Positions 9,551 through 60,612 of a stretch of DNA of 64,000 nt are shown piece after piece. Both the position numbers and the translations under genes were made by a program. Below the pieces are notes generated by a model. It ran no database searches and was not told the origin of the DNA. It saw only the letters and a list, made by a program, of their open reading frames with translations. This stretch comes from Minisyncoccota bacterium (GTDB lineage Bacteria > Patescibacteriota > Minisyncoccia > Phycocordibacterales > GWA1-40-21), in assembly GCA_041659365.1 (NCBI GenBank), contig JBAZYH010000001.1:37590-101589 (forward strand). Direction: 5' to 3'. Position 1 is the first letter of the stretch. Each line of letters begins with the position of its first letter.

Positions 9551-9570
9551 AAATAAAAACTTTAAAAAAT

Positions 9571-9665
9571 AATTATAATTTACACATATCAGCTATAGCT
9601 GATATGTGTAAATTATAATTATTTTAATACAAGAAGACGACTCGCAAAGCGAGTCGTCTTCTTGT
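9571..9665. terminator. bidirectional terminator region between convergent genes: 50-bp perfect palindrome plus a second perfect hairpin
   Basis: aattataatttacacatatcagctatagctgatatgtgtaaattataatt (9571-9620) and acaagaagacgactcgcaaagcgagtcgtcttcttgt (9629-9665), flanked by A/T runs. Confidence 0.55.
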
Positions 9666-9703
9666 ATTTATTTTAAAAATTTTATGAACTTTTTACTTCT
9701 ATC

Positions 9704-13654: not shown

Positions 13655-13690
13655 CAAAAACCGCGTGCACGACACACGCGGTTTTCTTAT
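13655..13690 (+). terminator. intrinsic terminator (copy 1 of an identical pair)
   Basis: ccgcgtg-cacgaca-cacgcgg stem-loop plus T-run. An identical 36-bp sequence sits at 14204-14239. Confidence 0.6.
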
Positions 13691-14182: not shown

Positions 14183-14257
14183 GGCCCAAAACCTTAGGTT
14201 AATCAAAAACCGCGTGCACGACACACGCGGTTTTCTTCTGTCACTTAAGCGACAAAA

Positions 14258-14725: not shown

Positions 14726-14885
14726 ACGACTCTCCTTTTTGAATGAACAAGCGTATTAGTTGATGAATACACGATACATCCTTATTTCCAGTTTTACCTA
14801 GAAACGACCCAACCATACAGTCAGGAATTAATTCATTTTTATATTATATATAATATGTAGTAATGTCAATTTTTAGGATTATAAA

Positions 14886-14921
14886 TTTTACACATATACG
14901 CCATGGCGTATATGTGTAAAA
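14886..14921. repeat. perfect palindrome TTTTACACATATACGCCATGGCGTATATGTGTAAAA (copy 1 of 3)
   Basis: Perfect inverted repeat centred on CCATGG, flanked by T- and A-runs. It lies downstream of the tgt stop, so it is probably a bidirectional terminator. Confidence 0.6.
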
Positions 14922-14940
14922 TTAATTTATTAAAATACTT

Positions 14941-15066
14941 AACCTGGATTGCGACGTCAGAATACTTCCTCGCAATGACAGAAGGGGAATTTTGCGAAGC
15001 AAAATTCCCCTCTCTCCTATTTATTTTCTTTTTGTCATTGCGAGTTACTACGTCGCAATCCAGGTT
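14941..15066. repeat. two short palindromic repeat elements in opposite orientation, plus a central hairpin
   Basis: aacctggattgcgacgtcagaatacttcctcgcaatgaca (14941-14980); ggggaattttgcgaagcaaaattcccc hairpin (14984-15010); tgtcattgcgagttactacgtcgcaatccaggtt (15043-15066). Confidence 0.55.
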
Positions 15067-15076
15067 AATTTTTATT

Positions 15077-17867: not shown

Positions 17868-17966
17868 TAATAAGTTAAAAGTAGAAAGTTTAAAGTTAAA
17901 AGCAATACAAATACAAAAACCACTTAAATTAAGTGGTTTTTGTATTTGTATTAAATTGTCCTTATA

Positions 17967-18461: not shown

Positions 18462-18633
18462 TGTCATTCCCGTACAGACGAGAATCTAGTATTAATCAAT
18501 ACAACCTGGATTCCCTTTTTCAAGAGAATGACAATACAAAAAACTAATTAACCTGGATTGCTTCGTTCCTCGCAAAGACAATACTCATACAAATACTAAT
18601 ACTGGATTCCCGCCTACGCGGGAACGACAATAC
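18462..18633. repeat. cluster of four short palindromic repeat elements (TGTCATT...AATCC family), 9-16 bp apart
   Basis: tgtcattcccgtacagacgagaatctagtatt; aacctggattccctttttcaagagaatgacaatac; aacctggattgcttcgttcctcgcaaagacaatac; actggattcccgcctacgcgggaacgacaatac. Confidence 0.6.
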
Positions 18634-18640
18634 AAAAAAC

Positions 18641-18677
18641 GAGGAGACACCTTTTTGAGGATTTAAGGTCTCACCTC
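18641..18677. repeat. conserved imperfect hairpin element GAGGAGACACC-loop-GGTCTCACCTC (copy a), flanked by A- and T-runs
   Basis: caaaaaacGAGGAGACACCtttttgaggatttaaGGTCTCACCTCgtttttt. Other copies at 25861-25897, 30035-30071 and 30629-30665; partial copy at 46805-46828. Confidence 0.6.
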
Positions 18678-18735
18678 GTTTTTTGTTATTTTCCGCGTAA
18701 GGTCAGCGTGGTTCCGCGTCTTGTCCGCGATAGAT

Positions 18736-24441: not shown

Positions 24442-24615
24442 CTAGATTGCTTCGCTTTGCTCGCAAAGACACACAAAAAAAATAACACAAAGAGGTTTTT
24501 GCAAAGCAAAAACCTCTTTGTGTCTTTGCGAGCAAAGCGAAGCAATCCAGGTTTGTATTTATTTTTTTGTTGTCATTCCCATGCAGACAGCCTGCCCGCC
24601 TTAGGAGGGGGAATC
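24442..24615. repeat. composite palindromic element (inverted 30-bp arms around a 37-bp hairpin) plus one more short palindromic element
   Basis: ctagattgcttcgctttgctcgcaaagaca / cacaaagaggtttttgcaaagcaaaaacctctttgtg / tgtctttgcgagcaaagcgaagcaatccaggtt; then tgtcattcccatgcagacagcctgcccgccttaggagggggaatc (24571-24615). Sits between convergent genes. Confidence 0.6.
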
Positions 24616-24705
24616 TATAATTCTAATATAAAAAATAGCCTCATAAAATTTAAAATAAATTTTATGAGGCTATTTTTCGTAATCGTCTGTGTTCATTTTA
24701 TTAAA

Positions 24706-25825: not shown

Positions 25826-25860
25826 ATCCTTATTATACTCATTTTAATGAAATAAAAAAT

Positions 25861-25897
25861 GAGGAGACGCCTTTTTTAATTCTCAAGGCCTCACCTC
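25861..25897. repeat. conserved imperfect hairpin element (copy b) with compensatory change
   Basis: GAGGAGACGCCttttttaattctcaaGGCCTCACCTC; A>G on the left arm is matched by T>C on the right arm, compared with the other copies. Confidence 0.6.
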
Positions 25898-25971
25898 ATT
25901 TTTTAAATTATAAAAATATTTATCAATACTTTATAAACTTTAAACTTTTTACTTTTAACTACTTCAGTTAA

Positions 25972-29923: not shown

Positions 29924-30034
29924 AATAAAATTATATCAAAATCTATTTAATAATGATACTTTAATTTATTTTATAAATACCACTTTGTCTTTACGAGTAG
30001 AAAAAAATAATCCAGATTTAATAAAACAAAAATC

Positions 30035-30071
30035 GAGGAGACACCTTTTTGAAGATTTAAGGTCTCACCTC
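30035..30071. repeat. conserved imperfect hairpin element (copy c)
   Basis: aaaaatcGAGGAGACACCtttttgaagatttaaGGTCTCACCTCaattttt; downstream of the RRM gene stop region. Confidence 0.6.
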
Positions 30072-30131
30072 AATTTTTGTTTAAAAAAAAACACACTTTC
30101 GTGTGTTTTTTTAAAAAACTCTAAGATAATA

Positions 30132-57418: not shown

Positions 57419-57452
57419 TTCACACATATACGCCATGGCGTATATGTATGTT
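57419..57452. repeat. 34-bp palindrome (copy 2, one mismatch) overlapping the stop codon of the Cas2-like ORF
   Basis: ttcacacatatacgccatggcgtatatgtatgtt. Confidence 0.6.
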
Positions 57453-57840
57453 AATTAAAAATATTATTTTTTTCTGAATATTCTTTTGCTAATCTAAAAG
57501 TTTTTAAATTATCTTTCAATCCTATAGATTTAATATAATCAACAAAACTTTTTGGTAACGGAGAAGGTCCAACCCAAACACTCCTCTGAATCATTACATA
57601 ACCAAACTTTTTTAAATGTCTACGAAGCCAATCTCGTTCAGTCTTTTGATCGTGTGAGATATCATACATAACAATTAATTTTTTAGGTGATTCTTTTTTG
57701 AAATTTGATTGAAACGAAACATTGTATGTATCTCTTACTTTATTTTTTCTATTTTCTTTTTTTCTTTTATCAAAATCAGGACTACTTGTTGGAATACCAA
57801 AAGAATTAACCCACACCCCTTTATAGTTATGTTTACTCAT
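57451..57840 (-). CDS. Cas2-like ferredoxin-fold small protein with a 50-aa basic N-terminal extension; solitary, no other cas genes or array
   Basis: Residues about 54-100 (KKLIVMYDISHDQKTERDWLRRHLKKFGYVMIQRSVWVG) match the Cas2 beta-alpha-beta core (lvvYDis..krRrkvaklLkryG.rvQySVFec). C-terminal LKDNLKTFRL resembles the Cas2 DSVRIYRL strand. Bracketed by identical palindromes. Confidence 0.4.
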   Translation of the reverse strand: MSKHNYKGVWVNSFGIPTSSPDFDKRKKENRKNKVRDTYNVSFQSNFKKESPKKLIVMYDISHDQKTERDWLRRHLKKFGYVMIQRSVWVGPSPLPKSFVDYIKSIGLKDNLKTFRLAKEYSEKNNIFN

Positions 57841-57855
57841 TTTAATATTATATAC

Positions 57856-57893
57856 TTTTTACACATATACGCCATGGCGTATATGTGTAAAAA
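57856..57893. repeat. 34-bp perfect palindrome (copy 3) immediately upstream of the Cas2-like ORF
   Basis: tttttacacatatacgccatggcgtatatgtgtaaaaa. Confidence 0.6.
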
Positions 57894-57954
57894 GTAATAA
57901 ATTATTTTTTTAAATAATACTTTTATATTATTATTGTTGTGTTAGTATAGATAT

Positions 57955-58079
57955 TGAATTTCCGATTTGGGTGTAGGTAGTCCTCTACCGAATAACGAGG
58001 CGTCGGATAAAACGCCTACAAGGGTTTTCGGGCCTAGAGACCCAACTTCTACCAGCTCTGCACATGAGAGCTGGTTTTT
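57955..58079 (+). ncRNA. candidate small structured RNA (GC-rich island ending in intrinsic terminator); family unknown
   Basis: About 115 nt at about 48% GC in a 25% GC spacer, with internal helices (aggcgtcggataaaacgcct; gggcctagagaccc). Ends with cagctctgcacatgagagctgg plus TTTTT (58053-58079). Attempts to fold it as tRNA, tmRNA or SRP RNA failed. Confidence 0.25.
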
Positions 58080-58090
58080 CATTTAGCAAA

Positions 58091-60274: not shown

Positions 60275-60381
60275 AATGTAAATACTTTAGCAGATTTTTT
60301 TATTTTAAGATAGGTTTTTTCTATAATAGACTAATCACAATAAATTAAAAAACTTCATAATATATTATGAAGTTTTTTAAT

Positions 60382-60612
60382 TTATTGCATCAGTTTTCTT
60401 AATTCATTCTGATTCTCTCTCATAACTTCCATGGATGCAGACATCTGATCCTTACCTTCCTTCATCTTTTGTTCAATCTTTTTTGCTATATCATTAAAGA
60501 ATTCTGGATTCTTTTCTATAGCTCCTATTATCTTATTTTGTTGATCTTCTGGAAGCCCCTTCATCTGCGACTTCAACATCTGCTTCATCATTATATTTTT
60601 GAAAAATCCCAT
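60382..60612 (-). CDS. hypothetical small Lys/Glu/Met-rich helical protein
   Basis: 76 aa; no RBS evident; low confidence. Confidence 0.3.
   Translation of the reverse strand: MGFFKNIMMKQMLKSQMKGLPEDQQNKIIGAIEKNPEFFNDIAKKIEQKMKEGKDQMSASMEVMRENQNELRKLMQ

Follow-up and report, generated by a model that had tools for sequence, protein, structure and literature searches.

A gene encoding a 129-amino-acid protein, labelled Cas2 in NCBI and JGI records, is located in the window (the whole 64-kb stretch of DNA that was analysed, from a Candidatus Paceibacterota (CPR) genome, with a G+C content of ~32%) among genes encoding TspO, an 87-aa membrane protein, a wHTH protein and YchF. It is bracketed by two copies of a long palindrome, one in its promoter (O-up) and one adjoining its stop codon at 57451-57453 (O-down), and two solo copies are found elsewhere in the window (Table 1): one between the terminator of tgt and the promoter of a gene encoding a 155-aa protein (TTGACA-17-TAATAT at 14869-14841, minus strand), and the other between the stop codon of a NUDIX gene (9550) and the canonical terminator of that gene (9626-9668). 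The initial annotation had put one palindrome downstream of tgt and one on either side of the Cas2-like ORF, and that is where they lie; the palindrome it described is real, with positions that had to be shifted by one or two bases.

Of the three copies of a 34-bp palindrome that had been counted, two are perfect: the 34-mer TTTACACATATACGCCATGGCGTATATGTGTAAA occurs exactly twice in the window (14887-14920 and 57858-57891) and in none of the dinucleotide-preserving shuffles of the window. The third (57419-57452, TTCACACATATACGCCATGGCGTATATGTATGTT) is identical to it at only 29 of 34 bases, with a perfect inner part of 24-26 bp and a broken outer arm. A related 50-bp palindrome noted at 9571 is also real but larger, being a perfect 60-bp palindrome (9566-9625) with 30-nt arms and no loop; as had been described, it combines the same outer arms as the 34-mer (TTTACACATAT) with a different, still palindromic centre (CAGCTATAGCTG), and its core has a CAGC half-site variant that is present in other genomes too. 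A position-weight matrix trained on ~110 homologous sites detected exactly four sites in the window (47.3, 47.3, 40.4 and 28.9 bits) and, in 20 shuffled windows, nothing that reached 8 bits, and an inverted-repeat scan placed this palindrome family at the same four sites only. The family consensus, TACACATATACGCCATGGCGTATATGTGTA, is exactly the sequence found in the window.

Table 1. Coordinates of the gene, its promoter, the palindromes of the window and the longer family members; locations without a locus name are positions in the window.
Feature	Location	Strand	Remarks
Gene for 129-aa protein, proposed palindrome-binding autoregulator	57451..57840	-	PaaX_M/Cas2 fold in C-terminal part
TATAAT -10 box	57847..57852	-	ends 6 nt before ATG (A at 57840)
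O-up (proposed operator), upstream palindrome of the Cas2-fold gene	57858..57891	.	perfect 34-mer
O-down (proposed operator), downstream palindrome	57421..57450	.	40.4 bits; outer arm degenerate, inner part perfect
Solo copy	14887..14920	.	same as O-up over 36 bp
Solo variant site, perfect 60-bp palindrome	9566..9625	.	30-bp core 9581-9610, 28.9 bits
Paralogue, wHTH + PaaX_M	L066 6380-6859		core GACGGCCGTC
Paralogue, wHTH + PaaX_M	L073 200-682		core GACGGCCGTC
Paralogue, wHTH + PaaX_M	L095 667-1242	-	GAATATAATTCGCGGTCGCGAATTATATTC flanking gene on both sides
Longer family member, wHTH + PaaX_M	L100 48-533		related CGCTATCGCG core, arms spaced wider
Longer family member, wHTH + PaaX_M	L101 3001-3495		related CGCTATCGCG core, arms spaced wider

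Other repeats were noted in the window. Three perfect intergenic palindromes of 47-50 bp with unrelated sequences (60338-60387, 17904-17952 and 24631-24677) could be sites of other factors or bidirectional terminators, and a second, unrelated hairpin family, AAACGAGGAGACACCTT ... AAGGTCTCACCTCG, present at 18632-18686, 25841-25917 and 30017-30089, looks like a set of shared terminator modules. Inverted pairs of a CTGGATTGCGACG...CTCGCAATGACA motif, partly kept in the related locus L099, flank the tgt terminator (~14925-15070), and a 32-nt inverted repeat similar to these pairs is found at 24442-24550. A 17-nt hairpin, CGTGTGTCGTGCACGCG, is present in two exact copies (13662-13678 and 14211-14227) with ~550 bp between them, both terminator-like on the minus strand. 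Comparison of the palindromes and nearby gene-free stretches with Rfam gave only chance matches to miRNA-like hairpins. The ~110-nt leader of the 155-aa gene (14726-14840, minus strand), which has no Rfam match, is more than 90% identical to its counterpart in L099 while the surrounding intergenic DNA has diverged; it is possibly a cis-regulatory RNA adjacent to tgt. The gene-free stretch between O-up and the wHTH gene (57940-58080, plus strand), which has no Rfam match even at E <= 1 and has a canonical terminator at its end (58051-58075, then TTTTT), is a candidate small RNA.

The best Pfam match of the 129-aa protein is PaaX_M (PF20803; 49.8 bits, cut-off 24, E = 3.8e-13). The Cas2 cut-offs of Pfam and TIGRFAM are exceeded narrowly (27.7 bits versus 23.8 for CRISPR_Cas2, PF09827; 32 bits versus 24.5 for TIGR01573), the score for the PaaX equivalog TIGR02277 (18 bits) falls short of its cut-off of 264.55, and no HTH family of Pfam is matched. 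In an AlphaFold2 model (mean pLDDT 80), residues 53-121 adopt the Cas2 fold, preceded by a beta-hairpin and a low-confidence basic helix, the N-terminal part as a whole being modelled with low confidence (pLDDT 53-76); the top PDB matches found by Foldseek are SSO8090 and Cas2 proteins (probability 0.99-1.0, but E-values of only 4e-3 to 1e-1). The N-terminal 50 residues contain a conserved YKGVxVNSFGIP motif followed by a basic stretch, and the protein ends ~10 residues past the Cas2-like domain. More than 600 homologues were found, with ~60% identity across the group, and Asp60, which may correspond to the catalytic aspartate of Cas2, is invariant in the family alignments.

No cas1 or other cas gene was found in the window, nor among the genes listed for four other loci (L008, L011, L094 and L095). 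Tandem Repeats Finder, which reported a single repeat (18-bp, 2.7 copies) in the whole 64 kb, detected no CRISPR array in the window; the other repeat scan covered inverted repeats. The genes bracketed by the palindrome are probably gene regulators that have been wrongly labelled as parts of CRISPR systems.

A profile search of 1.8 billion representative proteins, which returned 458 representatives at E <= 1e-10, revealed that the 129-aa proteins are a compact subgroup within a larger family of 155-200-aa proteins. The longer relatives have an N-terminal winged helix followed by PaaX_M. In an alignment (A2) with relatives of 160-190 aa, the 129-aa subgroup lacks ~38 residues corresponding to the recognition helix and wing, and it retains the YKGVxVNSFGIP motif. 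Because of this deletion, no standard DNA-binding motif is identifiable in the 129-aa protein.

The palindrome accompanies the gene in other genomes. When a single genome per species was scanned for the pattern, four CPR genomes proved to have these arms; in L001 (Nomurabacteria), one copy is located 5-6 nt past the stop codon of the homologue and another ~20 nt before its ATG. Among loci fetched through the protein alone (80 metagenome loci and several from exact-protein look-ups), the palindrome is present upstream in 61 of 65 unique regions and downstream in 49 of 64. Every subfamily has a copy at the stop codon. The gene plus two palindromes is a recurrent arrangement in ~60 distinct loci of uncultured CPR bacteria, and this flanking of homologues by a 30-bp palindrome family upholds the initial suggestion of a specific recognition site that is more than a generic terminator. 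The distance between upstream and downstream copies, tested as a sign of looping, has no helical phasing (Rayleigh p = 0.25-0.37). No description of the arrangement, the protein family or the sites was found in the searchable literature, so that the arrangement seems undescribed so far.

The promoter of the gene has a constant layout. In essentially all 61 unique upstream regions, a TATAAT box precedes the ATG, ending 6-8 nt from it, and a Shine-Dalgarno sequence is lacking between palindrome and ATG. The neighbouring 87-aa gene of the window carries AAGGAGG, indicating that Shine-Dalgarno sequences are used elsewhere in the genome. From the position of the TATAAT box and the lack of a Shine-Dalgarno sequence, the mRNA of the 129-aa protein gene is predicted to be leaderless, and it probably is. 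The distance from the upstream dyad to the ATG is 34-35 nt in 48 of the 61 loci. In the window, O-up is self-complementary over 57853-57896 (22 pairs), with its dyad between 57874 and 57875, 34 nt before the ATG; it covers approximately -49 to -20, taking the place of a -35 element, which is not recognisable in this promoter.

The two half-sites vary together. Across 61 distinct upstream sites, 80.9% of cells pair (68.2% in shuffles), and the covariation score is 0.383 versus 0.157; none of 500 shuffles reached 0.383, and slid controls were far lower. Counting from the dyad, there is no variation at positions 1, 7 and 10 and hardly any at 3 and 9, positions 2, 4, 11, 12 and 14 vary symmetrically across both half-sites, and position 8 is relaxed, with T.T and A.A tolerated. 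Pairing is approximately at chance beyond position 15. The pair next to the central AT alternates between C-G (33 sites) and T-A (20 sites), and the cells that are not Watson-Crick (22 G.T, 20 A.C and 47 others) have no wobble bias. Some sites have extended perfect pairing, as in the 60-bp palindrome of the window and the 19-24 pairs of L014, L043 and L068.

The locus has the same anatomy in one genome after another, its half-sites covary symmetrically, and paralogues are paired with palindromes of their own (see below); these findings lead us to favour, with some confidence, the explanation that the palindromes are the cognate operators of an autoregulated PaaX-like Cas2-fold DNA-binding protein, along with rare solo sites. 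PaaX, whose dimerisation domain is PaaX_M, represses its own gene by binding inverted repeats over the promoter (PMC9493321), a family context that speaks for this explanation. A dimer of the protein would bind the 30-bp double-stranded dyad TACACATATACGCCA|TGGCGTATATGTGTA; occupancy of the upstream copy, which overlaps the -35 region of the predicted leaderless promoter, would block RNA polymerase and repress the gene, in the way of PaaX at the Px promoter. The downstream copy past the stop codon would be a second operator, serving as a roadblock or as an auxiliary site, and the solo copies (14889 and 9581) would be additional targets that are easily gained and lost in evolution, most of them lying just beyond the 3' end of a gene. 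Binding of the site by the protein, and repression as the effect, are what we infer from sequence comparisons; the conserved Cas2-like domain may read the CGC-N4-GCG core and the variable N-terminal segment the outer arms. Several observations do not sit easily with this explanation: the 129-aa protein has no identifiable standard DNA-binding motif, an operator placed at the stop codon is uncommon among plain autorepressors, the spacing of the two copies has no helical phasing, the solo sites are not conserved among close relatives, and perfect extensions to 40-60 bp are beyond what contacts with a protein can explain. A neutral cause, template-switch correction of quasi-palindromes, is possible for these extensions.

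Contigs with the 129-aa gene also carry paralogues of the wHTH + PaaX_M type, every one of them flanked on both sides by a distinct palindrome of its own; the longer paralogues in L066, L073, L095, L100 and L101 have 160-191 aa, and the promoter layout of the paralogues is the same, with a -10 box and a leaderless ATG. Since coexisting paralogues bear different palindromes, the palindromes are specific to the gene and not to the genome, and because they are gene-specific, the simplest arrangement is that each protein binds its own sites. Between clades, altered operators are matched by changes in the protein: the N-terminal segment differs in the clade with AAGTWCRC operators, and the clade with GGCC-core operators has D70N in helix 1. 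This correlation is only suggestive, since it could arise from shared ancestry alone. The same set of proteins raises the alternative, judged unlikely, that a different trans-acting factor (a wHTH + PaaX_M paralogue or another regulator) binds the palindromes and that the 129-aa gene is merely the best-conserved target, its product perhaps modulating the factor through heterodimers of the Cas2-like domains. In favour of such a factor, the 129-aa protein is without the recognition helix and wing that its closest longer relatives retain; a related core, ACGCTATCGCGT, accompanies the wHTH-bearing relative that is nearest to it (L100), and wHTH paralogues coexist with the short form in some contigs. 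In those contigs, however, the palindromes of the paralogues themselves are clearly different, no wHTH + PaaX_M paralogue is encoded in the 64-kb window, and a gene-specific palindrome in every subfamily is most simply explained if each protein binds its own.

The solo sites are sparse: two in the 64-kb window, two in 84 kb of loci fetched by tgt or ychF, and ~10 in gene-centred loci, giving a density of approximately 1 per 40-60 kb, or ~1 per 42 kb in loci fetched independently of gene and palindrome. Most of them are located just past the 3' ends of genes. In four loci (L062, L079, L084 and L092) palindromes bracket a gene adjacent to the regulator gene, and in L005 they bracket another small ORF. 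Relatives keep the order tgt, 155-aa gene, uvrB, histidine kinase, response regulator, but not the palindrome site: in L099 the copy at the orthologous position has decayed, L098 has a copy elsewhere, and L097 has none. Being decayed or shifted among close relatives, the solo sites are too labile to be a conserved regulon.

Further arrangements of sites were noted in individual loci. The interval between tgt and uvrB varies (11482-12144 in L097, 13085-15076 in the window), and in L097, with 94% Tgt identity, an IS200-like Y1_Tnp gene is found where the window has the 155-aa gene, a 128-aa gene and the solo palindrome. In L005 (4370-4970) a module of palindrome and terminator AAAACCCCGCAATGCGGGGTTTT is present twice in direct orientation, flanking an 82-aa ORF beside ligA. 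In L006 (649-770) a 120-bp stretch preceding a cytidylyltransferase/kinase-like gene holds three different CCATGG-centred palindromes of the family in tandem, 1.3 kb from an IS200-like Y1 gene. The only clearly intragenic site seen (L040 5058-5087, 38.7 bits) is inside a dihydrofolate-reductase-like ORF.

A second alternative is that palindrome, promoter, gene and palindrome constitute a selfish mobile or recombining cassette, present or past, in which the palindromes are the ends, the solo copies are footprints or small derivative elements, and the Cas2-fold protein is a nuclease acting on hairpins or cruciforms. The neighbours of the gene differ between the window and its relatives L094 (80% identity) and L095 (71%), and in L011 the gene is situated between rpsG and fusA. 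A synteny comparison for a clean insertion beside ychF met the end of one relative's contig 23 nt after ychF and, in the other relative, a rearrangement downstream of ychF. Because the gene neighbourhood differs even between close relatives, past relocation of the gene is possible, and a cassette would also suit the bracketing of neighbouring genes in the five loci named above, the gain and loss of solo copies among relatives, the invariant Asp60 and the sporadic long perfect palindromes. Against this, target-site duplications were not beyond chance at 41 loci, no transposase or recombinase is present, there is one copy of the gene in the window and typically one per fetched locus, and neither the protein family nor the core sequence is found in IMG/VR. 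With ~60% identity across the group, the gene looks like a housekeeping gene passed on vertically, neighbours such as KhpA or DprA downstream are kept within subclades, and the fixed promoter spacing is accounted for by regulation. The cassette is accordingly improbable, and the earlier idea that the palindromes are ends of a mobile unit carrying the Cas2-like gene is not supported, for want of target-site duplications beyond chance, a transposase and a match in IMG/VR; the absence of the protein family and core sequence from IMG/VR also led to rejection of a phage or viral origin. An unconventional reading, to which we give little credence, is that a Cas2-fold protein with no recognisable HTH is a sequence-specific reader of a 30-bp palindrome, with repeat, gene and repeat as a self-contained module. 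Such a module could be a protein roadblock marking gene boundaries or, alternatively, could be the relic or active form of a recombining cassette, in which case the association of a Cas2-type protein with palindromic repeats would be older than CRISPR or independent of it.

Binding of duplex DNA by the 129-aa protein has also to be weighed against the palindromes acting as nucleic-acid hairpins (terminators, insulators or determinants of stability in 3' UTRs), possibly bound by a Cas2-fold RNA-binding protein or RNase; some Cas2 proteins are RNases. Predicted RNA folding is strong (-19 to -28 kcal/mol, z-scores -5 to -9), the downstream and solo copies lie just past stop codons, and a simple scan flagged three of the four window sites as terminator-like. 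The copy that it did not flag as an intrinsic terminator is that at 57858, in the promoter, before the predicted start of transcription. Separate canonical terminators follow several downstream or solo copies (9626-9668 in the window, and in L008, L019, L027 and L062), so that the palindrome is not itself the terminator. An intrinsic terminator has a U-tract immediately behind a G+C-rich stem-loop where a transcription unit ends; here there is no consistent U-tract, the tails of other copies being weak (AATTTATTAA, ATGTTAATTA). A hairpin is impossible at the covarying pair next to the central AT, since a loop of 2 nt would be left, position 8 tolerates T.T and A.A, and G.U pairs are not enriched among mismatches. 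The central-pair covariation, the lack of G.U enrichment and the copy upstream of the predicted start argue for symmetric recognition of duplex DNA rather than an RNA hairpin. Hairpins are thus very unlikely to be what the palindromes are for, and the initial suggestion of bidirectional terminators fails on the same grounds: the upstream copy in the promoter, the separate terminators, the absence of wobble bias and the covariation of the central pair.

DNA uptake sequences (DUS/USS) number in the hundreds to thousands, with a copy every 1-5 kb or so, and mobile repeats of the REP/RAYT or MITE type have many copies per genome, a transposase that goes with them and target-site duplications. That the palindromes are uptake signals, as had been proposed, or REP-like scattered repeats is scarcely credible: they are indeed extragenic palindromes repeated at unlinked sites, and IS200-like Y1 transposase genes are found in the related genomes L006 and L097, but four sites in 64 kb (and ~1 per 42 kb in independent loci) are far too few, the window lacks a Y1 transposase, nothing that matches the palindrome lies near the Y1 gene of L097, and the strongest association is with one specific gene.

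Very few regulators have been characterised in CPR/Patescibacteria. If the autoregulated operator pair is real, hundreds of genes annotated as "CRISPR-associated endonuclease Cas2" in genomes without CRISPR would be PaaX-like DNA-binding autoregulators, each paired with a sharply defined 30-bp operator, and automatic annotation and CRISPR censuses would be corrected. The pair would provide a ready-made regulator and operator for a lineage with little genetics, and a test case for the use of a Cas2-fold domain in sequence-specific DNA recognition after loss of the winged helix. The conserved, predicted leaderless promoter also documents promoter architecture in Paceibacterota.

Among known systems, REP/RAYT elements and integron attC sites resemble the arrangement in that a gene is bracketed by palindromic repeats with extra intergenic copies, and in that symmetry is more conserved than the sequence of the outer arms. 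They differ from it in copy number, which is low here, and in having an HUH transposase or tyrosine recombinase, of which there is none here, whereas the core sequence is conserved and the promoter spacing fixed in the arrangement described here. Lambda cI (PRM) and LacI (O1 with downstream O2) exemplify leaderless, autoregulated repressors that use an auxiliary operator besides the main one; the likeness is to a predicted small regulator with a leaderless mRNA, a palindrome overlapping the promoter and a second site a few hundred bp downstream. Their fold is unrelated, the second site here is exactly at the end of the gene, and there is no sign of looping or helical phasing. With Cas2, the 129-aa protein has in common the ferredoxin-like fold and the LIVMYDI...QxSVW motifs, but it has an extra conserved N-terminal region of 50 aa, and its gene is a single one that has a promoter to itself and palindromes on either side; unlike for the Cas2 of CRISPR adaptation, no cas1, other cas genes or array were found with it in the window or the listed neighbourhoods.

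PaaX of E. coli and Pseudomonas shares the central Cas2-like PaaX_M domain with the 129-aa protein, and its layout of an N-terminal wHTH followed by PaaX_M is found in the wider CPR family as well. It binds inverted repeats overlapping promoters, including its own Px, and blocks RNA polymerase (PMC9493321). In comparison with PaaX, the 129-aa protein lacks the C-terminal PaaX_C ligand domain and most of the wHTH, the operator is a contiguous 30-bp dyad instead of TGATTC-N27-GAATCA, and there are a second copy after the stop codon and a predicted leaderless mRNA. The architecture is nevertheless one that fits autorepression as in PaaX, with a predicted operator dyad situated 34-35 nt upstream of the ATG and replacing the -35 element.
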